A DNA stretch of 64,000 nt, from contig CAVOHZ010000004.1 in assembly GCA_963695855.1 (NCBI GenBank), forward strand, positions 32,001 through 96,000. Reading direction: 5' to 3'. This DNA is from an uncultured Nitrososphaerales archaeon (GTDB taxonomy: Archaea > Thermoproteota > Nitrososphaeria > Nitrososphaerales > Nitrososphaeraceae). Position numbers and translations under genes: made by a program. This document shows positions 8,034-53,458 of this stretch, piece after piece; the stretch's first letter is position 1; the number at the start of each line of letters is the position of its first letter. The notes under the pieces are model-generated. The model saw only the letters and a list, made by a program, of their open reading frames with translations. It was not told where the DNA came from and did not search any database.

Positions 8034-10283
8034 TTATGTTATACTTTTACCGATAAAGCTATCAAGACTAGGTTTTCCAAATCGTTCAGCTATCTTTTCA
8101 TACATACTTATCTCTTGAACAGACAATGGTCTAATTTTTTTCATTGCTTCTTCAAAATGGTGCATTGTTATTTTTAATTCATTCTTTTTATCCTCTGCTT
8201 CTTTTGGATCTTTATACTTTGTTATATGTTCTCTTAATGCCAACATAACTGCAGCTGAGGCCAGAGCAGCAATATCTGCACCTGTATAACCTTTGGTTTT
8301 CTCTACCAAGTCTTTTATATTTACATCATCAGCAAGAGGCTTCTTTTTAGTATGAATTGAAAAAATTTGTGTCCTTGATTCATCATCTGGAGGAGCAACA
8401 TACAGTAATCTGTCAAATCTTCCTGGACGAAGCAATGCTGGATCTATTATATCAGGTCGATTGGTAGATGCGATCACCACAACATTTGTCAATATCTCCA
8501 AACCATCTAGTTCTGTTAATAGCTGACTAATTACACGTTCTGTCACATGAGAATCACTTCCAGATCCTCCCCGTGCTGGGGTAATTGCATCGATTTCATC
8601 AAAAAAGATCATACATGGAGCTGCCTGTCGCGCTTTTCTAAATACTTCTCTTACTCCTTTTTCAGATTCGCCAACCCATTTGGAAAGAAGTTCCGGTCCT
8701 TTTATACTAATGAAGTTAGCTTCGCTTTCATTAGCTGTAGCTTTTGCAATAAGTGTTTTTCCTGTGCCAGGCGGTCCGTATAAAAGAATTCCTTTTGGTG
8801 GAGTTGCATCAGTATGGTTAAAAAGACCTTGATATTTTAGTGGCCATTCTACTGCTTCCTGTAGCTCTTGCTTAATTGTGGTAAGCCCACCTATGTCATC
8901 CCATTTAACATCTGGAACTTCAACAAAAACCTCTCTGAGAGCAGAAGGTTCCATTTCTTTGATCACTTCTAGAAAATCTTGCATGGTCACCACTATTTTC
9001 TTTAAGGTTTCAGAAGGAATGCTTTCAGTTGCAAGGTCTATTTCTGGTAATACCTTTCTCAAAGAGCGCATCGCGGCTTCTTTTGCAAGTGCATGAAGAT
9101 CAGCACCTACAAAACCATGAGACATACTGGCTAACTTTTCAAGGTCTACATCCTTCGAAAGGGGCATTCCCCTGGTATGAATCTGAAGAATTTCAAATCT
9201 CCCTTCTTTATCAGGAACACCGATCTCGATTTCTCTATCAAATCTTCCAGGACGCCTAAGAGCTGGATCTATGGCATTTATCCTGTTCGTTGCCCCTATT
9301 ACAACAACTTTTCCTCTTGAAGACATTCCATCCATCAAGAATAACAGCTGTGCAACAATTCTTCGTTCAACCTCTCCACTGACTTCATCCCTATTTGGTG
9401 CGATAGAATCAATCTCATCAATAAAAATTATTGAAGGTGCATTTTGTTCTGCTTGTTTGAACACATTTCGTAGTTTTTCTTCTGATTCTCCATAAAATTT
9501 GCTCATTATCTCAGGACCACCGATGGTATAATAGCTTGCATTAGTTTCATTTGCAATAGCCTTTGCAAGCAAAGTTTTACCAGTGCCAGGAGGTCCATGT
9601 AATAACACACCTTTTGGTGCTTCTACACCAAGCCGTCTAAACAATTCAGGATGCCTCAATGGAAGTTCTATCATCTCTCTTACCCGGGATACTTGGCCCT
9701 TGATCCCTCCAATATCCTCATATGTTATTGATGGAGCAATTCCTTCTTTGGCAATCTGTACAGCTTTAGCACTTTCTTCTGAAATAATTATTTCGGTTGA
9801 TTCATTAATTAATACCGGACCTGATGGTCTTGTAGATATTACGACCAAATCCACACGTTGACTCATTATAATGAGCGGAATGACATCGCCAGTAGTTACC
9901 AGATTACCAAGTAAATATTCTCCAAGATATTCCTCTGCACCTACAATTCTAAGAGGTTCAGTTGGTGCAAGGGTGATACTTTGAGCATCTTTGGATTCTA
10001 TTTTTTTAAGATCAACAAGATCATTTATACCTACATCAAGTCTATTTCTAATATATCCATCAATCCGTATTAGCCCTTTTCCTCTATCATTTTCTCTTGC
10101 CGGCCAATTTAATACCGTTACTTTTTTACCCAGAGAAGAGACCTCTATAACATCACCTGACGATATTTGTAATTGATGTGCGATATCTGGGTCTATACGT
10201 GCAATTTTTCTTCCCACATCTCTTTGTTCTGCTTCTGCAACTTTGAGACTTGGATTTAATTTATTGTTACCGTTTTGACTCAT
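8034..10283 (-). CDS. cdc48: CDC48/VCP (VAT) family AAA ATPase
   Basis: N-domain plus two AAA modules (GPPGTGKT twice, '[13 protein letters not shown]', '[12 protein letters not shown]'). Confidence 0.97.
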
Positions 10284-21244: not shown

Positions 21245-22363
21245 ATGAGATTTTTTGGTTCGAAAGGAGTCAGATTTTCAGAGAGCAATATAAAATGTTG
21301 TATATGTTTTATTGATCTTGTAGATTCAACAAAAAATACTTTAAAATTTAGTAATTCAAGTGATACAAGAGAATATTACTCGACATTTATTAACGCGATA
21401 TATGAAATAGTAAAAAAGAATAATGCAAAGGTTGTAAAAAATATTGGTGATTCATTACTATTTTATTTTCCTAATACATCCGATACTACAAATATTTCCG
21501 GTTTTCAGAAGGTTATAGAATGTGGTTTGGAAATATTGGAAAACCGAGAAAATATTAACCAGAAAATGTCAAGTGAAAACTTTCCGCCATTCAATTATAG
21601 AATTAGTATAGATTATGGGGTGGTTGAATTAGCCTTGTCTGGAGAGTACAATCAATTAGATATTTTTGGATCCGCGGTAAATATATGTGCCAAAATTAAT
21701 GTGTTATCTAAACCAAATGAATTAGTAATAGGGGATAATTTCTATAGAATACTAAAAGCCTATTCAGCATTTTTTGAAAAGCATTACCTGTTTGATTTAT
21801 CTGGAGAGTATAAGATACTGGAAGATAGTACATATTCTGCCTACGTCATTAAAAAGAAATCCACTGAAGATACGTTACTCAATAGTCGGGATATCACATA
21901 CAGCTCAAATAACGGAGCTACCTCTGTCGGTTCTATTTCACTAAATAAGCATCAAATTGAACAAGAGACAAGTCACAGAATTTATGACAGTAAGAAAAAA
22001 ATTATTCTGATAGATGATGATCCTGATGTGTTATACAGTTTAGAATTATTTTTGAGTGAATGTAAGTACAATGTTATTTCCTTTACAGATTGCAGATTTG
22101 CTCTAGAATATATGAGGTCAAATCCATTCTACCACAATCTCTTGATAATAGCAGATATTAGGTTAAAAAAAATGAATGGACTGCAACTTTACCTACAAGT
22201 AAAAAGCATAGATCCAACTATAAAATTTCTTTTTATTACGGCCCTAGATATTGTGGATGAGGTAACATCTGTAATACCTGGATTGGATAAGAGTCACATA
22301 ATTAGGAAACCTATAGAAAAAAATGTATTTGTAAATAAAATAAAGACACTATTACCTATGTAA
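21245..22363 (+). CDS. Class III adenylate/guanylate cyclase fused to a C-terminal receiver domain
   Basis: 'FIDLVDST', 'VKNIGDSLL', 'DIFGSAVNICAKI'; REC 'IDDD..ADIRLKKMNG..ITA..KP'. Confidence 0.9.
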   Translation: MRFFGSKGVRFSESNIKCCICFIDLVDSTKNTLKFSNSSDTREYYSTFINAIYEIVKKNNAKVVKNIGDSLLFYFPNTSDTTNISGFQKVIECGLEILENRENINQKMSSENFPPFNYRISIDYGVVELALSGEYNQLDIFGSAVNICAKINVLSKPNELVIGDNFYRILKAYSAFFEKHYLFDLSGEYKILEDSTYSAYVIKKKSTEDTLLNSRDITYSSNNGATSVGSISLNKHQIEQETSHRIYDSKKKIILIDDDPDVLYSLELFLSECKYNVISFTDCRFALEYMRSNPFYHNLLIIADIRLKKMNGLQLYLQVKSIDPTIKFLFITALDIVDEVTSVIPGLDKSHIIRKPIEKNVFVNKIKTLLPM

Positions 22364-22833: not shown

Positions 22834-23703
22834 ATGACCGAAATTACATTAGAAAAAATTAATGAAGCAATAAAAAATTCAAACGCTAAATGGAAAACCA
22901 GAGACCATCCACTGTTAAGGGCATCTCCCACCGAAAAGAAAAGGTCGCTAGGATTGAGAATAAATGAGAGTCAATTGAAATCACTTAGAGCAAAAGCTGC
23001 CCTAGATATCAAAACAGTTATAGAAGATTTTGGCAGACAGGTAAAAAGATTAAATGAAGTAGATTGGAGAAATAATGAAAATAAAAATTATGTAACTTCA
23101 ATAAAAAATCAAAAAAATTGCGGTTCTTGTGTGGGTTTTGGGGTTACAGCAACTCTAGAATCTATGGTACTTTTAGAACAGGGTAAAGAATGTGATCTTT
23201 CAGAGTCTGAATTATTCTTTTGTGGAGGTAAGGATGATGCAAGTTGCTCTAATGGGTGGTGGCCGAGTAGGGCTATACCATATTTGGTCGATAAAGGTCT
23301 ATCACCAGAAGAATGCTTTCCGTATGATGACAATGATATTCCTTGTATCACTTGTCAGGAGCGTGACAATCAGGCAATAAGGATAAGTAAACATGTAGAG
23401 ATAATGAATGTAGAGGATAGAAAAGTATATTTGTCTAGTGTTGGTCCACTTATAGGTGGAATGAGGGTGTTTTCAGACTTTATGTCATATGGTGAAGGAA
23501 TATATTCCCACGTCACTGGAGAAGAAGAAGGAGGACATTGTATACAAATAGTAGGTTTTAGCGATATGGAAAAATGCTGGATATGCAAAAATAGTTGGGG
23601 TCCAAATTGGGGAGAAAATGGATTCTTTAGAATAGAATACAATCAATGTGGACTTGATACTGAATTCCCAATGTGGGGGATAGCTAAAACTCAAATCCAA
23701 TAA
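22834..23703 (+). CDS. Papain-like cysteine protease (C1A) with propeptide, no signal peptide
   Basis: 'NQKNCGSC' (oxyanion Q, catalytic C), 'LSE', 'GGHCIQIVG', 'KNSWG..WGENGFFRI'. Confidence 0.93.
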   Translation: MTEITLEKINEAIKNSNAKWKTRDHPLLRASPTEKKRSLGLRINESQLKSLRAKAALDIKTVIEDFGRQVKRLNEVDWRNNENKNYVTSIKNQKNCGSCVGFGVTATLESMVLLEQGKECDLSESELFFCGGKDDASCSNGWWPSRAIPYLVDKGLSPEECFPYDDNDIPCITCQERDNQAIRISKHVEIMNVEDRKVYLSSVGPLIGGMRVFSDFMSYGEGIYSHVTGEEEGGHCIQIVGFSDMEKCWICKNSWGPNWGENGFFRIEYNQCGLDTEFPMWGIAKTQIQ

Positions 23704-23782
23704 AAAGAATGTATAAAAATTTCTTTTTTTTAAAAAAAATATCGTGAGACAATTATCTGCAAAAAGATAAGATAATAGATAA

Positions 23783-24106
23783 TCAAGATTTAATAATATT
23801 TAAAATAAATTCTTTTTCTTCTTTTATCTCTTTTTCCCATGTCTGTTTATATATAAATTTAATTTTGGTTTTCCCTACCTTTATAGTTCTAAACTTTATA
23901 GATTGAATTGAACTACTGCCCATAGTGGTAGTAGCATCTGTGGATTTTTCGTTTTTATCAGAAATTAATTCTAAAAATTCATTGTCAAATATGTAAGTCC
24001 ATCGATAACCGGCAGTTCCTCTTTTTTCGAGTCGGATATCAAAATCCTGGCCCAGAATTACTGAAAATTCATCTGGACCATGATTTGATACCGATCTGTA
24101 ATTCAT
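23783..24106 (-). CDS. Chagasin-family cysteine protease inhibitor (I42)
   Basis: 'RGTAGYRW' (NPTTGYxW-like), 'MGSS', 'FIYKQTWE' (RPW-like). Confidence 0.88.
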   Translation of the reverse strand: MNYRSVSNHGPDEFSVILGQDFDIRLEKRGTAGYRWTYIFDNEFLELISDKNEKSTDATTTMGSSSIQSIKFRTIKVGKTKIKFIYKQTWEKEIKEEKEFILNIIKS

Positions 24107-24130
24107 GATATTTTCATTTATATCATATCT

Positions 24131-25042
24131 TTATAATATTATATCACTTGCATTACCTATAGTTACAATTGGAGTCTTCATAGTTGTCATAGGATCAAAT
24201 TTACTGAGAATTCCAAAATCTAGATCAGTAAGAGATGCTATCGTTTTTATTTGAACTTGATATGTTTCATATTTGCCATATACAAATTTTAGTCCATCAA
24301 TCAATTTTTTTTGAGTTTGAATATATGCAGTGGCCGAAATATTTCTATCTTTCTTTATGATTGTGACTACTTTCCAAAAATCTGCAGGAATAAGGAAACG
24401 ATCTTTATAGAGTAGGTCATCTTTTCGAAAAACTGGACCAGTGAAAACATTGACTTTAAGATCATAAAGATCGGCATTTTCTAATATATAATCTTCTAAT
24501 TTTAGCCATGTTTTTTGATTAAGATCTTTGTGTTGTGGTGAACAGTTAGTAAAATGAAATGTATCTTCATTTGCATTCACATAATTATCTCCCCAAACAG
24601 GATCCAATCTACGAACCAGATGACCTCTGTCAAGATCATTTTTTGAATAGACTTCTGGTCCATATTGATACTTTTTATCAATTCTAGGATCAAAATACCA
24701 TATGTCTTTTTCTCTATCTAATTTCTTTAACTTTGAACCATCAATATTTACAGCAGTAAAGAACGCAAGACACCTAGATTTACTCATAACTACGGAAAAA
24801 TTGGCATATTTTAGTTCATGATCATCATTTTTTCTCAATTTTACACAATCTACAATCATAGGATCAGATAAATTGGGTAAAGGAATGGTCTCTTCTAAAA
24901 AATCCAAGTTATAGCCTTCGCGATTGTTATAGAGACTAGGATCTTTTTCAATAATATTCATCTGTTCAAATGGAAGATTTCCTGACATTGGATATTTATG
25001 ATTTATAATATTTTTAAATATTCTCATTCCTCTCTTAAACAA
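24131..25042 (-). CDS. DNA/RNA non-specific endonuclease (NucA/EndA, betabeta-alpha-Me)
   Basis: 'LDRGHLVRR', 'TFHFTNCSPQH..LNQKTWLKLE', 'TGPVF', 'IPADFWKV'; no signal peptide; likely start MSGNLPFE. Confidence 0.92.
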   Translation of the reverse strand: MFKRGMRIFKNIINHKYPMSGNLPFEQMNIIEKDPSLYNNREGYNLDFLEETIPLPNLSDPMIVDCVKLRKNDDHELKYANFSVVMSKSRCLAFFTAVNIDGSKLKKLDREKDIWYFDPRIDKKYQYGPEVYSKNDLDRGHLVRRLDPVWGDNYVNANEDTFHFTNCSPQHKDLNQKTWLKLEDYILENADLYDLKVNVFTGPVFRKDDLLYKDRFLIPADFWKVVTIIKKDRNISATAYIQTQKKLIDGLKFVYGKYETYQVQIKTIASLTDLDFGILSKFDPMTTMKTPIVTIGNASDIIL

Positions 25043-25368
25043 ACTGTTGATTATATTTCAACTTCTTTGGTTTTTACATAATTCAGAAAACTAAAATTTT
25101 CATAATAAGAATATTTCGACATATTTTATTTCAAAGATAATTAATAAATATTTAGAGAACAATAAGATCAAGTTATCCTTAAAGAGACCATTATCGATAA
25201 TCTTTTTAATTGTAATTAACCAATAAAACAACTATACAATATTATACATTAAAATGCAGATAATATAATAGATAAGATCCAAATGTGATTAATTAAATTA
25301 TGGACTTATGTAAATATGAAATTCTTGAAATCTAAAAAATTTAAATACAATTGTTTTAAACAACTAAC

Positions 25369-26229
25369 ATGACAATCGGATTATCGTTAAACATTGGATT
25401 AAATAAAGTAGATCCAAATCATTATGAAGGATGGGATGGTCAATTAAGCGCTTGTGAGTTTGATGCAGATGATATGGCTGAAATAGCTAGAGCAGAAGGT
25501 TTTGAGATACAAAAGCTTATTACGACAGATGCAACTGTAAAAAATGTTGTAAAAAATATCACAGATGCTTCTGAAAAGTTAGAATCAGGAGACATATTCC
25601 TTTTAACATATTCAGGTCATGGGGGAAAATTAAAAGATTTAAATAGAGACGAAAAAGATTTTGAGGATGAAACTTGGTGTCTGTATGATAGACAGTTTGT
25701 AGATGATGAGTTAAATGACTGTCTTTCAAAATTCAAAGAGGGTGTACGTATCTTTGTACTATCAGATAGCTGTCATAGTGGTACAGTAATAAGAGAAATT
25801 AATGGAACATTTATACAAGTTAATCCTCAGTATGAAAAAATTGATGTCAGAAATACTAATGTGGATAAGAACGGAGTCAAGTATAGATTTGTTCCTGATG
25901 CCGTACTAAATAGAGTTTATAGTCGTCATAAAGGACTATATGATCAAATCCTTTCCGATAAAAATTTAAAAGAGTCAGAAGATAAAGTTAAAGCCTCAGC
26001 GATTTTGATTTCAGGATGTCAGGATAATCAATTTTCACAAGATGGGACATATAATGGACTTTTTACAGCTAATCTGCTAAATGTTTGGGACGATGGACAA
26101 TTTAAGGATTCATATAAAACCTTTCATAAAAGAATCGTAAGTCAAATGCCATCAGAGCAGACTCCAAATTATTATGTAATTGGTAAACCTAACCTGGATT
26201 TCGAGAAGAAAATTCCCTTTAAAATATAG
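25369..26229 (+). CDS. Metacaspase/caspase-family peptidase C14
   Basis: 'YSGHGG' and 'SDSCHSG' His-Cys dyad, 'DETWCLYD', 'ISGCQDNQFS'. Confidence 0.93.
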   Translation: MTIGLSLNIGLNKVDPNHYEGWDGQLSACEFDADDMAEIARAEGFEIQKLITTDATVKNVVKNITDASEKLESGDIFLLTYSGHGGKLKDLNRDEKDFEDETWCLYDRQFVDDELNDCLSKFKEGVRIFVLSDSCHSGTVIREINGTFIQVNPQYEKIDVRNTNVDKNGVKYRFVPDAVLNRVYSRHKGLYDQILSDKNLKESEDKVKASAILISGCQDNQFSQDGTYNGLFTANLLNVWDDGQFKDSYKTFHKRIVSQMPSEQTPNYYVIGKPNLDFEKKIPFKI

Positions 26230-26358
26230 TAATCGACTGAAATTTTTCAGTTTTTATAATTTTTTTATTTTTTATTTCAAAAATATATGATATTTCTTGA
26301 TAATTAAACATACGCATGACAACAATCTCTTTATACAAGAATTTCAATTGAAAACATA

Positions 26359-27828
26359 TTGGTCCTGAGAACAAAAATATTGTTTGTTTCATCGGTACCA
26401 GAAGATAAAAATTATATCGATGTTGGTCAAGAGAGCGATATAATATCTGAAGTTCTTGGAATAATGAAGCAAGATAGCAAATTTCAGTTTATTCATAAAC
26501 ATGGCATAATCAGGGGAAAATTTCGAGAAATTCTACAAGATTATAAACCAGATATAATTCATTTTTCAGGACACGGAGGAGAAAAAGAAGGTCTTGTATT
26601 TCAAGATAATGAAGAAATTTCAAAGGAGATGTTAAGAGATATTTTTGATGGTTTACATAATGTACAATTAATTTATCTAAATGCATGTTATTCAGCAAAA
26701 CAGACAGATGCAATCAAAAATTTAACTAATGTCAAAAATATTATTGGGATGAATAAATCAATAGCTGATTATATTGCTATTCAATTTTCTACAAATTTTT
26801 ATAAAAATTATAAAAGAATCGAAATGATAAAAGAATCTTTCAGAGACACGTTTAACAATTTTAGACAAGAATATCCAGATATAGTTAATTTACCTGAACT
26901 AGTTAAAATAGATGAAAAAATAGAGATCAACGATTCTTTGGATAATCAAGATGAAATTGATCTCAAGAAAAAAAGTTCAAGAAGATTGGTTCAGAATCGG
27001 CAAATTTCTATAGACCTTTTATCACAAATTGATCAATCAATAAAAATATTTGATGAAAAAGTTGTTAAAAATGAAGTTGAACCAGAAAAGTTCTGGAAAG
27101 GAGAAACTTCTGTTAACCTCTCAAAAATTTTAATTATATTAGATTCATATTCAGAAGAATATGGTCTTTCCGATATTGAATTAAAAATAGTGAGAGGCAA
27201 TTTTAGAACAGCTGAAACCTTATTTCATACACTTACTTTTAAATCGAATTCAACAGAACTTGCAAGTAAAGAAATAATGCAAAGAAAGATGATAAAATGT
27301 TATGAGGAAATTATAAAAGTGTTAAGAAAATTACTTTTTAATTATAAACTTGATTCTATTCAAAAAATTCAACCCCTTTTCCCACAGGATTCTAGCAGGA
27401 ATATGTTATCTGATACATTATACAAGATTCAATCTTTATCTATTTCGTTAAATACTCTAAAGAATAAAATATTACAATCTATCTTAAGAAATGACGATCC
27501 ACTTGTTCAATCTAATTCTAAGGCCGAATATTTTAATATTTTATTTCATTTAAAGATAGAATATAATAATTTTATAAAATTTATGGAAAAAGAATTTGAT
27601 CCGAACATAGTAGAGAGGAATGTGAATGTCACGAACCTATTTTCAAACCTGAATGATAAATTAATCCTCGAACGAATAAATACAATAGGACTCTATGAAA
27701 GTTTAACCAATATTTATGATATTCAAGATGAATTAGGAAAAATTTTTGAAACATGTGTAGTATTTTTGGATAATATTAACAGAAAGATGAAGTCTGGGAT
27801 ATCGAACTATGAACCAGGAAACAGATAA
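26359..27828 (+). CDS. CHAT-domain (caspase HetF-associated) protein with helical C-terminus
   Basis: 'PDIIHFSGHG' and 'YLNACYS' intact dyad, 'IIGM..I.D..AIQFSTNFY'. Confidence 0.88.
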   Translation: MVLRTKILFVSSVPEDKNYIDVGQESDIISEVLGIMKQDSKFQFIHKHGIIRGKFREILQDYKPDIIHFSGHGGEKEGLVFQDNEEISKEMLRDIFDGLHNVQLIYLNACYSAKQTDAIKNLTNVKNIIGMNKSIADYIAIQFSTNFYKNYKRIEMIKESFRDTFNNFRQEYPDIVNLPELVKIDEKIEINDSLDNQDEIDLKKKSSRRLVQNRQISIDLLSQIDQSIKIFDEKVVKNEVEPEKFWKGETSVNLSKILIILDSYSEEYGLSDIELKIVRGNFRTAETLFHTLTFKSNSTELASKEIMQRKMIKCYEEIIKVLRKLLFNYKLDSIQKIQPLFPQDSSRNMLSDTLYKIQSLSISLNTLKNKILQSILRNDDPLVQSNSKAEYFNILFHLKIEYNNFIKFMEKEFDPNIVERNVNVTNLFSNLNDKLILERINTIGLYESLTNIYDIQDELGKIFETCVVFLDNINRKMKSGISNYEPGNR

Positions 27829-29428
27829 TTATATTAAAAAAGGTTCTCAAGATACCCAATCTTTAGAATCAGAAAGGGAGGAATTTAATAAAGAATTATT
27901 AGAGCTTTTGAAAAAGATAGATATTGACCAAAAAGATCCTCTAGTAATTAATCAACTATTTGTAGAAATAACAAAAAAAGTCAATGAAATTTGTGAAGTC
28001 TATTACGAATATGAGGAATATGAGAAGATTCTTTCTTATTATAATGCAGTATATGAGAAATATTTAGTGGCATTAGATTCACTGGAGGATTCAGAGGCAC
28101 AATATGGATATTATCTTCCAATAATAAGAGAATCATTTGAATACTGGAAGACAAGAATCCACTGGCTAAAAAAGGAACATACAAGAAAAACTATCAATAA
28201 TGGGAACCTGTTCTTGATCGAAGGCAAATTTGAGAGTGCTTTATATAACTTTGATCACGCATTGAAATATGATAGAAATAATCAGGAATTATTAAACAAA
28301 AAAGGCATTTCGCTATTTTTTCTTGAAAAATATAATGAATCATTAAAATGTTTTGAGGATGCATCAAGGTTATCAGAAAATCGTATACATATATTATATA
28401 ATATAGCTCTTACAAATGAACAATTAAAAAACATTTCAAAAGCTATTGAATTTTATAATAAGATATTAGAGGTTGACGAAAATAATCCATATGCGATGAC
28501 ATCGTTGGGTATTCTTTACTATGAAGAAGAAAATTATAAACTGGCTAAAGAGTACATCCAAAGGGCTTACCAAATTCAAAAGAATGATTGGAGGATCCCT
28601 CTTGCACTAGGATGTATATTAAGTGAAGGATTTGCAGAATATAATAGTGCAAAGAAATATTTTGAAACAGCCATTATGTTGAATCCCAATTCATCCTTAA
28701 TAAAATTGAATTTGGCAAATGTATTGCTCCTTCTTGGAGAATACAACAAAAGTGTAGAGATTTTGAAGAATGTTTCAATAGGAATGGAAAATGTCGAAGA
28801 CAGGTCAAGAGCAATAATATTGAGAATACTACAAATATGCACCAATTACCTCCTCAAAAAAGAAATATCAAATGATCTAATTGAAGAATTGGTCAAATAT
28901 TGCAATTTAAAAGATTTGAATCTTGTTAGCTGGAATTTTAAGAATCTAAAAAATTATGTTTTGAAAATAAATATGGAGTCGAAAACAAAAGACATATTAT
29001 GTTCTATCCTTTCTATTTCAGAGTTAGATGAAAACAGTAAAAAAATTTATTTAGATAGAATCCTTGCAGATTCAGAGAGTATTTTACTTCAAAAAAATAA
29101 TGTAACAAATGTGGATCAGGTAAAAGAGATTTTATTTATAGATCCGGAACAAATAGAGATATCACAAGACACAGAGCCAAACATAATAGAAAAAGGTTCG
29201 TATAATTGGAGACTTTATGTAAAAGCACCTGAACATATATTGTCTTTATTTGAATCTGTTGAATATATTTTAGATCCTAACTATTCAAAAAATATTCAAA
29301 GTGCATTTTCCAAAGATAATGGATTTGCGATCGAGGGAACTGGAAGATTTAATTCTAATGTTGAGATCAAAATAATGATGAAAGACAAATCAATCATCAA
29401 GAAATATATAAAATTGAAGTTCTCGTAA
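27809..29428 (+). CDS. TPR-repeat protein with C-terminal prokaryotic YEATS-like domain
   Basis: About 6 TPRs; C-terminus 'YNWRLYV...ESVEYILDPNY....SKDNGFAIEGTG' fits the pYEATS pattern; overlaps the CHAT gene by 20 nt. Confidence 0.8.
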   Translation: MNQETDNYIKKGSQDTQSLESEREEFNKELLELLKKIDIDQKDPLVINQLFVEITKKVNEICEVYYEYEEYEKILSYYNAVYEKYLVALDSLEDSEAQYGYYLPIIRESFEYWKTRIHWLKKEHTRKTINNGNLFLIEGKFESALYNFDHALKYDRNNQELLNKKGISLFFLEKYNESLKCFEDASRLSENRIHILYNIALTNEQLKNISKAIEFYNKILEVDENNPYAMTSLGILYYEEENYKLAKEYIQRAYQIQKNDWRIPLALGCILSEGFAEYNSAKKYFETAIMLNPNSSLIKLNLANVLLLLGEYNKSVEILKNVSIGMENVEDRSRAIILRILQICTNYLLKKEISNDLIEELVKYCNLKDLNLVSWNFKNLKNYVLKINMESKTKDILCSILSISELDENSKKIYLDRILADSESILLQKNNVTNVDQVKEILFIDPEQIEISQDTEPNIIEKGSYNWRLYVKAPEHILSLFESVEYILDPNYSKNIQSAFSKDNGFAIEGTGRFNSNVEIKIMMKDKSIIKKYIKLKFS

Positions 29429-29959
29429 AACGATATTTGAAACCATGACTAAAAATAAAAATTTAAATTGATATTTTCAATTCTATTTTTTGAATCAAAT
29501 TAAAAACATTCATTCGTAAATTGTGGATTCAATAAATTTGTCAAACCCTAAATAGAAATTATATTACAGAATTACTTTGATATGACACAATAATTTGAAA
29601 AATAATAATAAAATATTTTTTTAAAATATTTTTTTAATTAATATGTCGTGTCTATTATTATAAAAAAATTCAGGTATTCATCTGTTTCTATACACTGCCT
29701 GAGATACTAGATATGACGAATAGTACTATAATAATAAAAGAACATAAAATAAAAATTGTTTATTTTTAAATCATTATTCGCAATGTAATTAGTATCCTTA
29801 ATATAATTAATATTTAGTTTTATCTGTTTTATAGAAATAATAGTCTTTCAATATATAAATAACGTAAAACTATGAATCTTGTATTACCTTTGATTATTTG
29901 AATTGAGTTATCAAATTATAAAAATGTTAATAATATGTTTGTTTTGAATAAAGTAAAGC

Positions 29960-31048
29960 ATGAGATATAAAAAAATAACTAACTCGAATTTGATAACAGA
30001 TTACAAATGTTTTTGTTCCTACATACCTATTTCGGTACTTGAAAATTTAGCACGTGCAGGAGTAAAAGAAGCGTTACTAAGTATTAATCAAAGTAAAATT
30101 TATCGTGAAAAAAGAGATTTGAAGGATGTAAAAATAGAAAATTTTATGAAAGAATTTACCTCAACAAAAATGGTAGGAAATGCATCAAGAAGTGTCTATG
30201 ACTGTAACAAATGGGAACAGAGAGTATGAAAGCCGGTTAGAAAAGAGAACGGAGGACCCAGTTCAGACGAAACAGTAAATACAGTTTATGATTATGCGGG
30301 AAAAGTTAGAGATTATTTTCTAGAGAAACACAATAATAGAAAATCAATAGATGATGCCAATATGAATCTGTTACTAAATGTCCATTATGGGGAAAAGTAT
30401 CAGAATGCATACTGGGATGGTGATGAAATGACTTTTGGAGATGGAGACGGCGAAATATTTTTGGATTTTGCCAATTCACTAGATGTTATTGCTCATGAAC
30501 TGACACACGGTATAACACAATCGGAAGCCAATCTAGAATATAAAGGTCAATCAGGTGCATTGAATGAACATTTTTCTGATGTATTCGGTACGGTAATAAC
30601 GCAATTTGTTGAGGGACATACAGCAGAAACTGCAGATTGGCTAATAGGCGATGAAATAATGGGTCCTAAACTACGCGGTGAGGCTTTACGGTCTATGATC
30701 GAACCTGGAACTGCATATGATAACAACCTTATGGGAAAGGATCCTCAACCTTCGCATATGAAAGATTATTACAGTGGTGAGGAAGACAATTTTGGTGTTC
30801 ATATTAATAGCGGAATATTGAACAAGACATTCTATCTAGTAGCAAAGGAGATGGAATTAGGTACGAGTACCTCTGCCATCATTTGGTATGATGCATTAGA
30901 AAACCTTTGGCCAACTGCAAAGTTCAATGATGCGGTAAAAGTTATTGTTAGATCGGCACAAACACTGACTGAAAAGAAGAAGGTTCCGAAAGGTTCTGCT
31001 CAAAAAATACGTGCAGCTTTTAGAGAGGTTGGACTTCCCTCTTTATAA
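29960..31048 (+). pseudogene. Protealysin-like M4 metalloprotease interrupted by one in-frame TGA (30227-30229)
   Basis: ORFs 29960-30229 and 30362-31048 share a frame and the gap reads 'KPVRKENGGPSSDETVNTVYDY..RKSIDD'; propeptide 'SYIPISVL', 'NAYWDG', 'AHELTHG', 'GALNEHFSD', 'GVHINSG'. Confidence 0.9.
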
Positions 31049-31137
31049 GATACTAAGACTATACAATGATTTTGATAGTTTTTTATTTCTTGACGATAAC
31101 AAAATATATTTGAAATTTATCTGGATATCATCGATAA

Positions 31138-31460
31138 ATGATAGAAATAGATTTTTCTTTTTCTGGTGGATATGCGAATCTGAGAGGTTCTTTTAAAGGA
31201 AAAATAGAAAATTTACCAGACAACATCACCAGTGAGATAAATAAGATTTTGGAAGAATCTAAAATATTTGATTCAGATTTTGAACCGAAACAACAAAAAA
31301 ATTCATCGTGTCCTCCAGATGTATCTTCATATACGCTTGTCCTAAATAAGAACAGGGAAAAAAAGGAACTATCTTTTAATGACACACAATTCCTAAAGCT
31401 TTACATCCATTAATAGCTCATTTAAGAGAATTCACACTACATAAAAAAAGTTTCCGTTAG
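31138..31460 (+). pseudogene. Emfourin (M4in) protealysin inhibitor with C-terminal frameshift
   Basis: 'SGGYANL', 'PDVSSYTL'; expected C-terminal helix 'PKALHPLIAHLREF' lies in another frame from 31392 to a stop at 31460; directly follows the M4 gene. Confidence 0.75.
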
Positions 31461-33982: not shown

Positions 33983-35356
33983 TTATGTCCTTTTAGAATT
34001 CTTGTGAACTTCAGCTAGTACGTCGTTTATAATTTTTTTTACGTTTTCTGAACTAAGATCATAATTTTGTTCATTGTCTGGTTCTTTTTCTTTGATCCTT
34101 TTGGTAATTTTTCTATATTGTCTTTCGACTTCAACTTCCATTTGAGAAATTCCAAGTGTCTTTAGTAATTTAAAATCCTCTTCCATACTTTTATAGATCT
34201 CTCTACGAAGTACAGTATTATTTGAGATATTTATTGCAGTATTAAAAATACCTACTGTTAACATATATGTTCCAAGTACCACAAACGGGATTGCTAAGAT
34301 TCCATGGGGTGGAACAGCAGTCAATATTAATGTATAAATTCCACTTGAACTGTATAAAAAAATTATACCTGCGCATGTTGTCAACATGTTTTTTTTAAAT
34401 TTTGCATCATTAATCCTAGAAGCAATAATCCAAAAAACCAATCCAAAAAATATTCCACCCATCTGCTTCGGAAATCCGAAAAGAATATCTATGATGTCAA
34501 TAGGAATAAAGGCGCCAATATTTGACTCAAGAAGAAAGCCATAAAATGAAATATGTTTACCAATAATATAGCTAATAAGTAACTCGTATGAAAAAAAAAG
34601 GTAAATTAATGGTAAAAATATCAAAAACCAATATGCAATCTTTCCAATTTTTTTAGTGTACTGTTTTAGCATTATGACAGTAGTTATCCAAGTCAACAGA
34701 AATGATAAAATAAACGAAGAATCAAACAAAGTACTTAAAAAAGATGTGAGAGGAAAATTAATAGTATAAATATAGGAGAATAACAAACGTGCAGGAAGAG
34801 GCTTTATAAGTTCATTTTTATAAGACAATTCAGTATGAAGATAAATTAAGCCAGCTAGTATATGAATAGAAAATATTAAGAATGTAAAAGCGTAAAACAA
34901 AATAATTTTATTTTTATTGTGCTTGTACCAGTTGAATAAATGATATATGTTAACTGTTAAAAAAAAGAAGGATATTATAAAACTTGAATAGGTCATTAAA
35001 GTCAAATATATTTTTTGATAATTATGGAATGTCATAATTTGATATAGTAATAAGAACAATAATACAAAAAAAATAATTTGATTAATTAAAAAAACTGCAA
35101 AAAATATTTTTGACTGTTTGATATATCTTTTATCAATATCTTGATAATTAAAATAAAGAAATCTTATGAGAAATATATTGACAAATAGTGAGAATCCGCT
35201 AAGAAAGGAAAATATGGTAGCTTTTGAAAATAATGGCAAATTCATTAAATCTAGCCTGGTAAATGATGAGTCTAATACGATTATAACAACAGATAGAGAA
35301 ATGAGAATAAGCATATATTTTGAATATGAGATATTAGCAAAAATTATTTGTCTCAA
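33983..35356 (-). CDS. Polytopic membrane protein (about 11 TM) with cytoplasmic helical tail
   Basis: Hydrophobicity pattern; 'GGIFFGLVFW', 'PPHG', tail 'LRREIYKS...LGISQMEVE'. Confidence 0.8.
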   Translation of the reverse strand: MRQIIFANISYSKYMLILISLSVVIIVLDSSFTRLDLMNLPLFSKATIFSFLSGFSLFVNIFLIRFLYFNYQDIDKRYIKQSKIFFAVFLINQIIFFVLLFLLLYQIMTFHNYQKIYLTLMTYSSFIISFFFLTVNIYHLFNWYKHNKNKIILFYAFTFLIFSIHILAGLIYLHTELSYKNELIKPLPARLLFSYIYTINFPLTSFLSTLFDSSFILSFLLTWITTVIMLKQYTKKIGKIAYWFLIFLPLIYLFFSYELLISYIIGKHISFYGFLLESNIGAFIPIDIIDILFGFPKQMGGIFFGLVFWIIASRINDAKFKKNMLTTCAGIIFLYSSSGIYTLILTAVPPHGILAIPFVVLGTYMLTVGIFNTAINISNNTVLRREIYKSMEEDFKLLKTLGISQMEVEVERQYRKITKRIKEKEPDNEQNYDLSSENVKKIINDVLAEVHKNSKRT

Positions 35357-35414
35357 GGTTTAACTCTTTTCATATTATAAAAAAGTCGGTAAATGTTTTT
35401 TGTCCCAGATATAT

Positions 35415-36143
35415 CTATTTCACTACTACATCATATAATATGTTATTAGCTCCACCAGACCAGCCACCTTGTGTACTCAGTCCCCTTGTACCACTAACTG
35501 TTTGAGTGTATTCTAATGTATGATTACCTGGAGAAAGTTTATCTAATTTGGCAAAGAAACCATGTGCATGTGCTAGGTATGTTCCTGATCCTGACTGGTA
35601 AGCATCAATCCATTCACTATCTTCAGGAACATACACCTCAAAAAGATCCTTAGTTTGAACTTCTATAAAATTAGGCTGACCTGGATTATTACCAACTGAT
35701 ACATCTTTAACATCAACAATTTTTTTCCCATCTAGAGATAATGTAAAATCAAGAAATCCTACATCTGCTTCAAGAGCACAATTTAATATTTCTTCTGACG
35801 TAGCACTTTTTCCTAGTTCACTGCCAGTATCGCATTCGCCAGTATAAGCAGGGATTAAAAATTCTCTATCTGATGGTAAAGTGCAATTTTGTTTTTTGTA
35901 ACCAACTTCAAAGGGATCGAGCAACATAATAGGTAGTGAAATATTTGATGGCATGTTAATTAAACACAGATTACCTTCTTCTACAGTTTCATCCTTAGAT
36001 ATTTGAAGTGCAAATCTCCAATATTCTTTCAGCCATTCTTCATATTTGTCCGATGACTCTTTTGCTTGTATTTGAAAAGGTTTTAATGAGCAAATAATAA
36101 GCAAAACACTTAATGTTAAAAAAACAGCAAATTTTTTTTTCAT
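35415..36143 (-). CDS. Secreted protein of uncharacterised family (paralog of 38084)
   Basis: Signal peptide; 'WLKEYWRFALQI', 'CTLPSDREFLIP', 'AHAHGFFAKLDKLSPGNHTLEY'. Confidence 0.8.
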   Translation of the reverse strand: MKKKFAVFLTLSVLLIICSLKPFQIQAKESSDKYEEWLKEYWRFALQISKDETVEEGNLCLINMPSNISLPIMLLDPFEVGYKKQNCTLPSDREFLIPAYTGECDTGSELGKSATSEEILNCALEADVGFLDFTLSLDGKKIVDVKDVSVGNNPGQPNFIEVQTKDLFEVYVPEDSEWIDAYQSGSGTYLAHAHGFFAKLDKLSPGNHTLEYTQTVSGTRGLSTQGGWSGGANNILYDVVVK

Positions 36144-36372
36144 TTTATGTTTTAGGATATTTAAAATTAATATTTATTATTTGCTATTTAAATGGTTGAA
36201 TATCTGAATGCTCGAGTCATTCGAAAACATATACGTATCCTTAAGATTAGGATTCATAAAAATTATCACAAAATAAAAAATAACGAAGGATTTTACTAAA
36301 ACTAAAATCAATTCTGAAGCAATAAATATTTCAGTGGGATTGTTGACTTTAGTACTATTTTTTACTGGTTGT

Positions 36373-37215
36373 TTACCGGACCATTCCACTGATTTGTATT
36401 TTTGCACTTATGCGATAATTGATAGAGTTTACTTTGAACTCTAAAAGATGATCTCCTTGGTTAATATATTCGGGTTTTAGCGCTAATCCTTGCCACAAAT
36501 AAATTTGGTCTATTGTGTTATTACTTTTTAGATTTTGTGGCTTTACATTCATTATATTTCTGTGTGGAATATTCGCTGTCGATTGAAACTCGTTTCTTAT
36601 CACTGTGCAACCATTGATGGGTTCGTCATCAAAGTATGCTTCAATTTCGTATATTCCTGCTGTATCTCTTAATATAAACTCAAGTAGTTGTTTCTCTGTA
36701 TATTGAGGTTTTTTAATATAAAATTGTGGAGATTCCATAGACATAAATGTTGCTACTAAAAGACCATCGTTATCCTCTGTGAGATTAATATCCCTAAAGT
36801 CTGCCGGCTCCTGAAATGGAGCCACTGTAGCAAAATAAAGATTAGTACCTTCATGTTTAAAAAGGAATGAATTCTCATCATTATATGGACCTATATTAGT
36901 AAATGAACTTGTAGATTTCTCATTTCTGGCAATCCAATCCATATAGTGTCCAACGGCTATGTCGCATGTTATTCCTCCCTTTCCTATAGGTTCATTATGA
37001 CCGTACACCTTTGTATGCTCTTGGTCATGTTTGTACCATTGCTTAATTTTATCTAACCTTTCATCTGTAAGATCATGTTCTGGACGAGCTAGATTTTTTC
37101 GCGTCTTAAACCTTAAATCTAATAATTTCTCTATTTCTTCTGCATTGAAAAAACCCTTAGGAGCTGACTTATGATCATGCTTATGGCTGAGTTTAGTACT
37201 CATGACTTGAGGCAT
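36373..37215 (-). CDS. Hypothetical protein, probable distant member of the same family
   Basis: 'HYMDWIA', 'NIPHRNIMNV', 'QGDHLLEFK' align loosely with 35415 and 38084. Confidence 0.7.
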   Translation of the reverse strand: MPQVMSTKLSHKHDHKSAPKGFFNAEEIEKLLDLRFKTRKNLARPEHDLTDERLDKIKQWYKHDQEHTKVYGHNEPIGKGGITCDIAVGHYMDWIARNEKSTSSFTNIGPYNDENSFLFKHEGTNLYFATVAPFQEPADFRDINLTEDNDGLLVATFMSMESPQFYIKKPQYTEKQLLEFILRDTAGIYEIEAYFDDEPINGCTVIRNEFQSTANIPHRNIMNVKPQNLKSNNTIDQIYLWQGLALKPEYINQGDHLLEFKVNSINYRISAKIQISGMVR

Positions 37216-38083: not shown

Positions 38084-38695
38084 ATGGAAACGGAAATAAC
38101 CTGTTTCACTCATGATTCTGAAATTTTTAATAAATCCTATGGACAATGGACAGTAGATTGGTGGAAATGGGCACTATCCACTCCTAGATTGCAAAACCCA
38201 GTTTTAGATAAGAATGGTGAAAATCATTACGTAAATCAACCGTCGTCCCGAGTATGGTTTTTAGCTGGTGTATTTGGCGATGAAGAAAAATATCATCCAA
38301 CTCGGAGAATAAAATTACCAGAAGGTTTGTCTATATTGTTTCCTGTCTTGAATTGTGAGGCGAATAGTATAGAATATCCACATTTAAAAAATGACATGGA
38401 TTTAATCGAACATGTTTCTAATGATGTAGAATCGGTAGTTAAAAAAGATTGTTTTGTAAATGATATAATATTAATTCCTGAACGTGTGCCATCTGATCCA
38501 AAAATATTCGAATTTATTATTCCAAAGGATAATATTCTTGGTGTGGAAGGTGGTAAGGTGATTCGAGCTTGCGCTGATGGTTATTGGATTTTTTTACGCG
38601 CGCTTCCAAAAGGTGATTATATAATAGATTTTGAAGGTTCTTGTGAATACGGAAGACTTAGCTCTGGAGCAAAGTATGAACTGAAAATAATATAG
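38084..38695 (+). CDS. Uncharacterised-family protein without signal peptide
   Basis: 'YGQWTVDWWKWALSTP..NPVLD.NG', 'VWFLAG', 'ILFPVLNCE', 'ADGYWIFLRALPKGDY'. Confidence 0.85.
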   Translation: METEITCFTHDSEIFNKSYGQWTVDWWKWALSTPRLQNPVLDKNGENHYVNQPSSRVWFLAGVFGDEEKYHPTRRIKLPEGLSILFPVLNCEANSIEYPHLKNDMDLIEHVSNDVESVVKKDCFVNDIILIPERVPSDPKIFEFIIPKDNILGVEGGKVIRACADGYWIFLRALPKGDYIIDFEGSCEYGRLSSGAKYELKII

Positions 38696-42718: not shown

Positions 42719-43285
42719 TTAATGACTTTTCCATCTGCTCTTTAATTTTGACAGTGTAATTTTAAAGTGACTCAATGTTTCATTATCTAGAATGCAAAAT
42801 TCTACAGTATCAAGAGAGGTTTTAGAGTTTAACAAAAATTTTTCAGTTTCATTTAAAAGAATATCTGCACATCTATGTTTGGGAAAACCGAAAATACCGG
42901 AACTGATTGCAGGTATGGAAATAGTTTTGAATTCTTTCTTCGTTGCAAGCTGCAACGTATTGAAAATAGATTGTGACAATTTATTATCTTCATCGCCTTC
43001 TCCCATTCTTGGTCCAACTGTATGAATTATTGCAGAACATGGCAGGTTTCCAGAGCAGGTAATAACTGAATTTCCTACGGGAACAAATCCTATCCTGTCA
43101 CTTTCGATCTGGATTATCCTTCCACCCTTCCTTACTATTGCACTAGCTACACCACCACCATGTTTTAAATAAGAATTTGCAGCATTGACAATTACATCTA
43201 CTTTTCTTTCAGTTATATCTCCCTGTACTATTGTGATTTTCTTAATATTTGAAAAGCTAAATTCATCTATTAATTGACCAATCAT
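42719..43285 (-). CDS. Macro domain protein (O-acetyl-ADP-ribose deacetylase, YmdB-like)
   Basis: 'GDIT..DVIVNAAN..HGGGVA', 'IHTVGP', 'PAISSGIFGFP'. Confidence 0.93.
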   Translation of the reverse strand: MIGQLIDEFSFSNIKKITIVQGDITERKVDVIVNAANSYLKHGGGVASAIVRKGGRIIQIESDRIGFVPVGNSVITCSGNLPCSAIIHTVGPRMGEGDEDNKLSQSIFNTLQLATKKEFKTISIPAISSGIFGFPKHRCADILLNETEKFLLNSKTSLDTVEFCILDNETLSHFKITLSKLKSRWKSH

Positions 43286-43396
43286 AAATTAAAAATAAAG
43301 ATTGTTTAATAAATAAATATTTAATTTATTTGCATACGAATAAAGCTCTTAACAATAATAGAAATTCTTCAATATTTATAATAGATCCATATACAA

Positions 43397-44134
43397 TCAA
43401 AGATTTCTTATCATTGACAATATCTGAGGCAGCATTTCAGTCGCCTTTCCCCTAAAGGAAAAATCCATTAAATTATTAAAAATAGTAGGTTCAGGATTTA
43501 CTTCTACTAGAGTTGCACCATTTCTTTTAGCATTCAGAGGTAATGTATTCACGGGACCTACGTTCAATGATGTTCCCACGATAAACATTACACTACAATT
43601 CCCTGAAGATTCCTCTGCTATTTTCCACCTTTGTTGATCTAATGGTTCTCCAAAGAGGACGATTTCGGGTCTTAAAATATTTTTACATGATTTACAAATT
43701 GGTGGCAAATATTGAATATCTTTTATATTTTGTTGTTCAAGTTCACCTTTAAAATTGCAGCCAGTACATTTTATTCTCATTATATTTCCATGAAGTTCAA
43801 CAATATTTTTGCTCCCGGCCCTCTTATGCAGTCCATCTATATTTTGTGTCAAAATCGTAGTATTTTTTAACTTTTCAATTTCTGCTATTGTTAAATGTCC
43901 CATGTTGGGTTTGCAACCTGAAATAAGGTTTTGTCTATCCTGATAAAATTCCCATACTAGTTTGGGATCTTCATAAAAGCCGGATATAGATGCAAGTTTC
44001 ATTGGATCGTATTTTTTCCATAGACCGCCCGGACCTCTAAAGGTTGGTATACCACTTTCTTCTGATATGCCTGCTCCAGTCAGAAAAACAAAATTATCTG
44101 AATTTTTCAGGATGGATTTTAAAGATTCTTGCAT
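43397..44134 (-). CDS. cobB: NAD-dependent protein deacylase, Sir2/CobB
   Basis: 'TGAGISEESGIPTFRG', 'TQNIDGLH', 'HG..C..C..C..C', 'GTSL'. Confidence 0.93.
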   Translation of the reverse strand: MQESLKSILKNSDNFVFLTGAGISEESGIPTFRGPGGLWKKYDPMKLASISGFYEDPKLVWEFYQDRQNLISGCKPNMGHLTIAEIEKLKNTTILTQNIDGLHKRAGSKNIVELHGNIMRIKCTGCNFKGELEQQNIKDIQYLPPICKSCKNILRPEIVLFGEPLDQQRWKIAEESSGNCSVMFIVGTSLNVGPVNTLPLNAKRNGATLVEVNPEPTIFNNLMDFSFRGKATEMLPQILSMIRNL

Positions 44135-44401
44135 GATTTAATTAATATTTCACCTACAAATATTTATTTTAGCTTCCTCTGCTGGGATATTATAATACTT
44201 TCTTCAGATAAGATTCAGATCAAATATGAGATGGTCTCATTTTTTTATTTTTATGAAAAATTATCTCTTATAATATCAAATTTTTTTTATAGTATAAGTA
44301 AATTGATCAAATTATTTTATAAACAATACATTCAATTCATATTATGAATATAGTTTTAGCTACATATCTGTAATATATAAAATCTTTATTAACAGAATGC
44401 A

Positions 44402-52440: not shown

Positions 52441-52516
52441 GTGAAATATTCAGTTACAGACTATATAACCTTGTTGGACCTGTATAACAACTATAAAAAG
52501 AATTACTTTTTATTTT

Positions 52517-53383: not shown

Positions 53384-53458
53384 TTCCTTACAAAAAAAGG
53401 TGCCATAAACCCACTAATAAACTTGTGAGAGGTATATTTGGATGATAGATTTGTTTTT

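Follow-up and report, generated by a model that had tools for sequence, protein, structure and literature searches.

An island of intracellular hydrolases around a conserved C14, CHAT, and TPR-pYEATS core in an ammonia-oxidizing archaeon

Genes at the locus and their active sites

In an uncultured archaeon of the Nitrososphaeraceae, eight consecutive genes at positions 22834-31460 of a 64,000-nucleotide (nt) stretch of DNA (the window, on contig C4 of the source genome) encode a papain-like C1A peptidase, a chagasin-family (I42) inhibitor, a NucA-type nuclease, a caspase-fold C14 peptidase, a CHAT-helical protein, a TPR-pYEATS protein, a protealysin-like M4 metallopeptidase, and an emfourin-like inhibitor (Table 1). 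All eight genes of this island are single-copy in the source genome. Comparison with related loci shows that the C14, CHAT-helical, and TPR-pYEATS genes (the core) form a conserved unit and that the island as a whole is a mosaic. The source genome (3.55 Mb, 11 contigs, ∼31% G+C) holds an archaeal amoA gene; the host is therefore an ammonia-oxidizing archaeon, as supposed in a first-pass annotation of this DNA. In what follows, G000 is the source genome, the other G-numbers are other genomes, and the L-numbers are loci, metagenome loci included.

Domains were called from Pfam profile matches scored against the Pfam cut-offs, and they confirm the eight consecutive genes and the domains named for them in the first-pass annotation. 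The emfourin-like gene scores below its cut-off, but its orthologue in G012 (59.5% identical) reaches 40.3 bits and rescues the call. The pYEATS profile is passed by a narrow margin; the orthologues score 31–32 bits and the domain is a β-sandwich in the model.

The active sites of C1A, NucA, C14, and CHAT, already annotated as intact, are indeed so. The catalytic Cys, His, and Asn of C1A align with those of cathepsin H, and the histidine of the DRGH motif and the metal-binding Asn of NucA align with those of Anabaena NucA (the start codon of the latter gene is uncertain, with a TTG at 25042 and orthologues that align from residue ∼26). In C14, H84 and C135 are invariant in 14/14 orthologues and, in CHAT, H72 and C110 in 11/11. 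In TPR-pYEATS, residues W467, V484, Y486, and D489 are invariant in 7/7.

No island protein has an evident signal peptide, again in agreement with the first-pass annotation. With a crude hydropathy measure in place of a signal-peptide predictor (the Kyte–Doolittle 15-residue maximum over the first 70 residues), all of them stay at or below 1.26, versus 2.3–2.7 for two exported controls of the window. Among the hydrolases checked at the loci of relatives, none has a hydrophobic N-terminus. The island holds four peptidase genes in 8.6 kb, versus one (HtrA type) among the other 39 open reading frames (ORFs) of the window with at least 90 amino acids (aa), so that the clustering of peptidases goes beyond chance. 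Both NucA and I42 are on the minus strand, with I42 24 nt further downstream, so that I42 runs in the direction of NucA and is convergent, not co-directional, with C1A. The CHAT and TPR-pYEATS genes overlap by 20 nt.

Table 1. Positions (numbered within the window) and assignments of the island genes and of the neighboring genes discussed
Feature	Position	Strand	Basis and remarks
Adenylate/guanylate cyclase with receiver domain	21245-22363	+	Guanylate_cyc 50.4 bits; Response_reg 48.9 bits
Papain-like C1A cysteine peptidase	22834-23703	+	Pfam 152.6 bits; N-terminal extension of ∼74 aa, no signal peptide
Chagasin-family (I42) inhibitor	23783-24106	−	Pfam 64.1 bits; presumed cognate inhibitor of C1A
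NucA-type Endonuclease_NS nuclease	24131-25042	−	Pfam 168 bits; conserved N-terminal extension
Stand-alone C14 caspase-fold peptidase, GSU0716 type	25369-26229	+	Pfam 85.1 bits (cut-off 21.4)
CHAT-helical protein	26359-27828	+	Pfam CHAT 30.8 bits (cut-off 24); match covers residues 53–164 only
TPR-pYEATS protein	27809-29428	+	Pfam TPR families; pYEATS 27.2 bits (cut-off 26.9)
Protealysin-like M4 metallopeptidase, interrupted	29960-31048	+	Pfam 166.8 and 72.9 bits
Emfourin-like inhibitor	31138-31413	+	Pfam 25.2 bits (below cut-off 27)
Membrane protein, ∼9 transmembrane segments	33983-35356	−	No Pfam family; hydropathy
Protein with signal-peptide-like N-terminus	35415-36143	−	No Pfam family; hydropathy
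Soluble 280-aa protein	36373-37215	−	No Pfam family; ESM Atlas without usable match

Conservation of the core

In the AlphaFold model of the CHAT-helical protein (predicted local distance difference test, pLDDT, 71.9), a caspase fold spans residues ∼1–185 and is followed by a disordered linker and by a helical region (218–478) that ends in a four-helix bundle. The model of the TPR-pYEATS protein (pLDDT 80.1) has helices over residues 2–426 and β strands over 450–535, that is, a helical N-terminal region, a TPR solenoid, and the C-terminal pYEATS β-sandwich. A fold search with the whole of this second model returned TPR proteins only. No usable match to the CHAT protein's helical region came from the ESM Atlas, and the four-helix bundle matched only generic helical bundles (Z 11–14), which is uninformative.

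The two genes are fused at six or more other loci. Fused proteins of 1033–1127 aa occur in G003 (1033 aa), G216 (1118 aa), L151 (1117 aa), L153 (1066 aa), and L154 (1127 aa); in G189 (L025, G189:C42, ∼860-1223), the fused frame is open over 1108 aa, with no ATG, GTG, or TTG seen in frame upstream of CHAT. By locus, TPR-pYEATS is joined to CHAT in L012, L112, L151, L153, and L154. In G000, G004, G022, and the L140–L150 lineage, the two genes are split. As judged from these comparisons, the CHAT and TPR-pYEATS genes are the two halves of a split sensor-protease.

The C14 gene adjoins the CHAT gene in 16/18 readable loci (G000, G003, G004, G010 in decayed form, G189, G216, and ten metagenome loci), with C14 either upstream in the same direction or downstream and convergent. 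The two loci without this adjacency are in G227 and in G022, whose C14 is carried by a different short contig. Another seven metagenome contigs stop before a flank can be read and were left out of the 18; several metagenome loci are near-duplicates (L142/L143 99.7%, L145/L149 99.9%, L152/L153 97.7%), so that the number of independent loci is below 18. A complex prediction for C14 with TPR-pYEATS scored 0.01 against a mark of 0.32, which is evidence neither for nor against binding.

The core is rare. A full-length CHAT-helical protein was found in 6/238 genomes of the family, to which G227 adds a form without the CHAT domain (two of the tallies, this one among them, each take in one unpublished genome, G171 and G232, on which no specific claim depends). 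Among 1.84 billion representatives, the CHAT domain alone gives 9,208 matches at E ≤ 1e-10, and 12 of the best 150 clusters pass profile position 310. In contigs from one genome per species, 4/63 confirmed loci cover the helical region, all four in metagenome-assembled genomes of Nitrososphaeraceae/Nitrososphaerales, and a word-based homologue search with the CHAT protein gave five matches. Sampled words of the stretch itself are present at 5–41% in 20 sequencing runs, mostly labeled soil metagenome, a figure without bearing on habitat or expression.

Between the same pairs of genomes, identity is 27–39% for the sensor halves, versus 52–65% for C14. Decayed copies occur: in G010, a CHAT remnant with two stops lies beside a transposase and, in G072, C14 carries one TAA and a C1 peptidase one TGA. 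In G072 and G090, C14 is paired only with a distant C1 peptidase, a divergent neighbor.

With the fusions and the adjacency in 16/18 loci, C14, CHAT-helical, and TPR-pYEATS form a conserved unit. To this extent, the grouping of CHAT, caspase, and a putative TPR sensor proposed in the first-pass annotation is supported; its extension to all eight genes as one fixed system is not.

Modules and exchangeable hydrolases around the core

On the core-bearing contigs, 13/55 of the non-core neighbor ORFs are peptidases by Pfam, versus 2/61 among controls made up of the rest of the window and five C14-only loci. The one-sided Fisher test gives p ∼0.001 (also ∼0.001 without the window), a value that overstates the case since the loci are related. 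Orthologues of NucA (57–65% identical) adjoin the core in G000, G189, L148, and L156, in four different arrangements. Hence, the co-occurrence of caspase, CHAT, TPR-pYEATS, and NucA that the first-pass annotation proposed to look for does recur, with the core found repeatedly and NucA at four loci, but in another arrangement each time. Within the source genome, NucA is thus, among the recruited hydrolases, the one with the firmest link to the core.

The other companions vary. A trypsin-like gene neighbors the core in G003 and L154. In G004 and L149 the neighbors are M14, a trypsin-like peptidase, a small NigD_C-like protein, a 285-aa protein, and an astacin-like peptidase. In G216 and L151 they are M14, an astacin-like peptidase, and the 285-aa protein (with, in L151, also a trypsin-like peptidase and a DUF900 hydrolase). 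M36 and M28 are present in G022, a broken M14 in G010, and, further on from NucA, S41 in G189. L145 and L149 additionally carry M28, a 105-aa gene, and M43, orthologues of a block of G012. NucA orthologues are also found among peptidases without the core: in G019, with astacin, YscW-like, trypsin-like, and matrixin genes and, in G057, with patatin, trypsin-like, M28, emfourin, and M4 genes.

The 285-aa protein, which matches no Pfam family, always accompanies a short astacin-like peptidase (G004, G216, L149, L151; for example, L013 8400-9257). The NigD_C-like protein (130–133 aa; L013 7909-8301) lies between the 285-aa protein and the trypsin-like gene. Both (in L149, at 1750-3101) are possible regulators or inhibitors.

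The composition of the island itself becomes clear from a comparison with G012, the nearest relative with a syntenic locus, in which the cyclase-receiver, M4, and emfourin genes are collinear with those of the window. Between the cyclase-receiver and M4 anchors, G012 has 170 nt versus 7,664 nt in the window, and the stretch absent from G012 (a 7.5-kb insertion or deletion) holds six genes: C1A, I42, NucA, C14, CHAT, and TPR-pYEATS. At the corresponding site, G012 has a protease island of its own, with a caspase-TPR fusion, the cyclase-receiver, M4, emfourin, the 105-aa gene, M43, and M28, together with a NucA fragment and pieces of an IS240-type transposase. The fusion, a 726-aa C14-TPR protein just upstream of the cyclase-receiver gene (L017, G012:C16, 5277-7457), is a different caspase-TPR design at the same site. 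No convincing repeats were found flanking the 7.5-kb block, where the sequence is AT-rich; the window has no tRNA, and no integrase was recognized by Pfam among its ORFs. A DDE transposase gene is present at 1962-2930 of the window.

The cyclase-receiver gene, the left anchor (57% aa identity with G012), was considered as a signaling part of the system and rejected as weak: at least 12 full-length paralogues (46–66% identical) are scattered over the source genome, so that its adjacency carries little weight. It is probably not part of the system.

For the C1A gene, an I42 homologue lies within ∼1 kb in 4/5 other loci with the close C1A type, and the stretches fetched around those pairs contain none of the other island genes. 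M4 adjoins emfourin in G012, G057, G223, and G240, and the pair has companions of its own. The three genes at 33983-37215, beyond the right end of the island, are conserved with it; homologues are found beside M4 in G012, in G003, and, from two other genera, in 5/5 fetched loci. A distant C1 peptidase often accompanies these companions of M4, which are conserved in at least three genera. C1A–I42 and M4–emfourin are thus, by their gene neighborhoods, self-contained protease–inhibitor pairs that also occur without the core, the second pair belonging to a separate conserved cluster with a membrane protein. The membrane protein of ∼9 transmembrane segments has several paralogues in the source genome, and a 203-aa protein at 38084-38695 looks, by eye, like a relative of the 242-aa protein at 35415-36143.

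The M4 gene of the window has a further particularity. After codon 89, a TGA in frame (30227-30229) cuts the gene, whereas in G012 the orthologue is uninterrupted (358 aa), reads GAT (Asp) at that site, and is 74% and 81% identical to the two halves. The HExxH motif is retained in the part downstream of the TGA. Because of the in-frame stop and the intact orthologue, the M4 gene is most likely a recent pseudogene, and an active enzyme is doubtful. The protealysin gene of the first-pass annotation keeps its M4 domain, therefore, but not an open frame. Recoding of the TGA (selenocysteine or a variant code) was set aside, since TGA terminates 8/47 ORFs of the window and the G012 codon stands for Asp. 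In G227, a second M4 copy carries five stops.

Other clusters were seen at a distance from the island. In the window, ParB, ParA-like ATPase, receiver-domain, and histidine-kinase genes stand in a row at 51577-55474 (minus strand), and Macro-domain, SIR2, and HIT genes side by side at 42719-44836 (minus strand). In G096 (L134), an M4 gene has ParB and receiver genes next to it, and NucA-like and LodA (lysine oxidase) genes lie within the same 20 kb.

The same combination of eight genes was seen at no other locus. By its gene content, the island is a mosaic of separate modules rather than one fixed system, and the single system assumed in the first-pass annotation is not supported, with C1A–I42 and M4–emfourin standing apart.

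Readings of the island and known systems

The reading that we favor, tentatively and at a little short of an even chance, is that of a mosaic of intracellular hydrolases around a core that would act in conflict or cell death, through a cascade from CHAT to C14 with swappable hydrolase effectors. From the domain content, the active sites, the fusion, the adjacency, and the recurrence of NucA and peptidases, we infer the following course. The TPR-pYEATS protein would respond to a trigger, which may be a small ligand or a protein that is foreign or modified. The CHAT protease would then be released or assembled, by analogy with SAVED-CHAT, and would cleave and activate the neighboring C14, the presumed second (executioner) protease. 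C14 would in turn cut many proteins, including pro-forms of the co-located hydrolases. C1A–I42 and M4–emfourin would be at most optional effectors, with the M4 probably inactivated here. A role in conflict or cell death is suggested by the relatives of CHAT in conflict architectures, the fast-diverging sensor halves, the patchy distribution, and the decayed copies.

Several observations weigh against this reading. In genus g29, the surroundings of the C14 orthologues (52–56% identical; nine fetched loci in six genomes) contain no homologue of CHAT, TPR-pYEATS, NucA, or a peptidase; the neighbors are Lhr helicase, CDC48, HSP20, aconitase, and rhomboid genes, a housekeeping setting, so that C14 does not need a CHAT partner. 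The M14, trypsin-like, and astacin-like peptidases that usually accompany the core elsewhere are absent from the source genome. A BLASTP search of the N-terminal extensions of the hydrolases for a shared adaptor domain returned orthologue pairs only, with no similarity across classes that could point to a way of recruiting effectors. The neighbors of the core are hydrolases, with no restriction, CRISPR, or other recognized defense genes among them. With the profiles of PADLOC-DB 2.0.0 (a library of 2023), no catalogued defense system was matched in this check, one of those suggested in the first-pass annotation; the matches stayed weak and at the level of domains (caspase 1.2e-05, BovA 1.6e-05, and, in the cyclase, PycC), and the fused CHAT-TPR-pYEATS proteins gave none.

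Two side observations concern the g29 neighborhoods. In one g29 genome, C14 is paired with a different CHAT protein, which carries HYR and PKD domains. A CDC48-type AAA ATPase gene, the type found directly beside a g29 C14 orthologue, is present in the window itself (8034-10283), in a stretch of raised G+C (0.39 vs. ∼0.29).

A stronger form of the same cascade, which we consider unlikely, is a modular archaeal executioner in which a TPR-pYEATS-guided CHAT would act on C14 and C14 on exchangeable pro-hydrolases, some of them held by inhibitors, as a lineage-swapped counterpart of the apoptotic cascade. The exchangeable set would then comprise the NucA nuclease and papain-, thermolysin-, carboxypeptidase-, trypsin-, and astacin-type peptidases.

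No more likely than that form is an ordinary physiological role, in which the hydrolases would serve a regulated bulk proteolysis under starvation or stress and the recycling of nucleic acids, or autolysis in aggregates, with C14 and CHAT regulating turnover. The g29 neighborhoods (CDC48, HSP20, rhomboid) recall chaperones and quality control, the M14 and M28 carboxy- and aminopeptidases suit a full digestion to amino acids, and no recognized defense gene is adjacent. On the other hand, a distribution limited to 6/238 genomes of the family, fast-diverging sensor halves, and copies that are often decayed fit poorly with such a role, and the Death-like, TIR, and STAND architectures of the CHAT relatives are more typical of conflict genes.

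It is improbable, somewhat more so than a physiological role, that all eight genes form one inhibitor-buffered cascade, with a TPR sensor driving CHAT, CHAT the caspase, and the caspase both the nuclease and the zymogens of C1A and M4, while I42 and emfourin would provide the safety catches. In its favor, the eight genes form an uninterrupted run, none of them has a second copy in the source genome, and by hydropathy every peptidase lacks an export signal. A distant C1 peptidase is the divergent neighbor of the C14 orthologue in G072 and G090. The M28, 105-aa, and M43 genes behind M4–emfourin in G012 recur as a block next to the core in L145 and L149, so that the modules share a neighborhood network, and G057 joins trypsin-like, NucA, M28, and M4–emfourin genes within 12 kb. 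Against one cascade, the combination recurs nowhere else, C1A–I42 lacks the other island genes in 4/5 loci (over the fetched stretches), and M4–emfourin is conserved with different genes and stays put in G012 without the six. In addition, the M4 gene has a premature stop, and I42 is co-directional with NucA and not with C1A.

Two further explanations are still less likely. The hydrolases could be extracellular weapons against competitors or prey, leaving the cell by a non-classical export, with the inhibitors as immunity proteins. Such a use is in line with the two protease–inhibitor pairs, with the conservation of M4–emfourin beside genes for a polytopic membrane protein and for the protein whose N-terminus resembles a signal peptide, and with the toxin–immunity reading proposed for protealysin, which is intracellular and in an operon with its inhibitor (PMC9505478). 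But neither a secretion system nor an export signal was found in the island by Pfam and hydropathy, NucA has no recognizable inhibitor gene, and the sensor-protease fusion and its tie to C14 would be left unexplained. Finally, the clustering beyond the three core genes could be the by-product, without functional link, of a variable region that accumulates accessory genes, as the clean 7.5-kb difference from G012, the transposase genes or fragments at the corresponding regions of G012, G010, and G022, and the occurrence of each protease–inhibitor pair also alone elsewhere would allow, but this is quite improbable given that peptidase ORFs are in roughly nine-fold excess near the core at loci with differing gene orders, that NucA adjoins it in four arrangements, and that M14, astacin-like, and 285-aa orthologues are found with it in both split and fused lineages.

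A cascade from one caspase-like protease to another has been shown in one bacterial CRISPR-linked system, and comparative genomics has led to the prediction of similar ones, chiefly in multicellular bacteria. The favored reading, a cascade from CHAT to C14 with swappable effectors, would place the same logic in ammonia-oxidizing archaea, which are major actors in the soil nitrogen cycle and whose virus defense and cell-death biology is almost unknown. The sensor would be distinct (TPR and pYEATS, with no NTPase and no nucleotide signal), and the module would be ringed by a broad and exchangeable set of cytoplasmic versions of normally secreted enzyme families. If this is true, the core would offer a tractable system of three proteins for a YEATS-like reader that triggers a protease, hints on how protease zymogens and inhibitors are wired into prokaryotic cell death, and an archaeal data point on the origin of eukaryotic caspase cascades. 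If it is not, the recurrent islands of peptidases without signal peptides in Nitrososphaeraceae still need an explanation.

The closest parallel is SAVED-CHAT of the type III-B CRISPR-CBASS hybrid of Haliangium ochraceum. According to Steens et al. (bioRxiv 10.1101/2023.06.23.546230), a sensor there switches on CHAT, which cleaves and activates a second caspase-like protease and leads to abortive infection; this second protease (PCaspase) cuts many proteins, its own inhibitor included. Compared by Foldseek and VIA, the AlphaFold model of the CHAT domain has the SAVED-CHAT filament (8tl0) as its best structural match (Foldseek E 6.3e-07; VIA Z 19.8, root-mean-square deviation 2.6 over 180 residues), versus Z 11–13 for other caspase-fold structures. 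Each of the two systems has a pair of adjacent genes for caspase-fold proteases. The differences are that no SAVED, Cas10, or CD-NTase domain is detected by Pfam among the ORFs of the island or window, that the sensor here is C-terminal and made of TPR and pYEATS, that the second protease is a C14 of GSU0716 type, that the host is an archaeon, and that the cascade is, here, a predicted one.

In sequence, the nearest relatives of the CHAT domain are found in heterocystous cyanobacteria, where it is fused to bDLD3, NB-ARC-WD40, TIR, CVNH, or EAD11. Such caspase and CHAT architectures are described as predicted conflict systems by Kaur et al. (2021; PMC8195603). The STAND, Death-like, and EAD systems of that work share with the core an N-terminal effector followed by C-terminal repeats; the core differs from them in having no NTPase between protease and repeats and no Death-like or EAD domain, with a family-specific helical region instead. 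A conflict-type cluster of another make-up is present in a congener (L114, G019:C48, 2551-12059), with TIR-SIR2, an nSTAND1 NTPase with β-propeller, a 330-aa CHAT protein, and MAP3K_TRAF_bd/TPR-S.

System 3 of Kaur et al. (2020; PMC7159879), as characterized there, combines multiple peptidase domains with a NucA-like endonuclease that a proteolytic cascade is predicted to deploy, with NucA and a trypsin-like peptidase as its defining pair; papain-like and other effectors may be added, and it is found mostly in alphaproteobacteria, often with transmembrane segments or EAD1. The island resembles it in having a NucA with intact active-site residues and several peptidases, and relatives do so in having a trypsin-like gene beside NucA (G019, G057). 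Unlike System 3, the island has no trypsin-like gene (the only one of the window, of HtrA type, is at 62440-63552), no EAD was detected, and the core consists of C14 and CHAT-TPR-pYEATS.

In Csx29, the TPR comes first and then CHAT. Craspase (gRAMP with the TPR-CHAT protein Csx29, 7zoq) resembles the fused core proteins in joining TPR and CHAT in one protein, and 7zoq_A matches the CHAT domain with Z 11.3; the order of the domains is reversed, however, and Craspase needs an RNA-guided Cas effector, whereas no Cas family was found among the window ORFs of at least 90 aa.

Inhibitors of the I42 family act on clan CA enzymes and are not known to inhibit caspase-fold ones. The island resembles the known chagasin–papain pairs in that I42 lies within ∼1 kb of C1A, here as in 4/5 related loci, and departs from them in the co-directionality of I42 with NucA. 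Protealysin-like proteases are reported to occur in certain archaea (PMC6778150). In Serratia proteamaculans, protealysin is intracellular and forms one operon with its inhibitor (PMC9505478). As in Serratia, the M4 gene lacks a signal peptide and is followed by an emfourin-family gene; unlike in Serratia, the M4 frame is interrupted and the pair lies within a conserved archaeal cluster with a membrane protein.

C14 matches over its full length (residues 3–285, E 3.2e-83) GSU0716 of Geobacter sulfurreducens (3bij), deposited as an "uncharacterized protein" for which the depositors give no function. The pYEATS domain is cited in a 2026 preprint as a ligand-binding domain of conflict systems. 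In agreement with the first-pass annotation, no description of the present combination of genes, in ammonia-oxidizing archaea or elsewhere, was found in the literature searched, which did not extend to the supplementary tables of the ParA preprint and of the two comparative-genomics studies by Kaur et al. (2020, 2021), where such architectures, archaeal ones included, might be listed. We rate CHAT-to-caspase cascades and NucA–peptidase conflict systems as already known, and the architecture of the sensor and the archaeal host as new.

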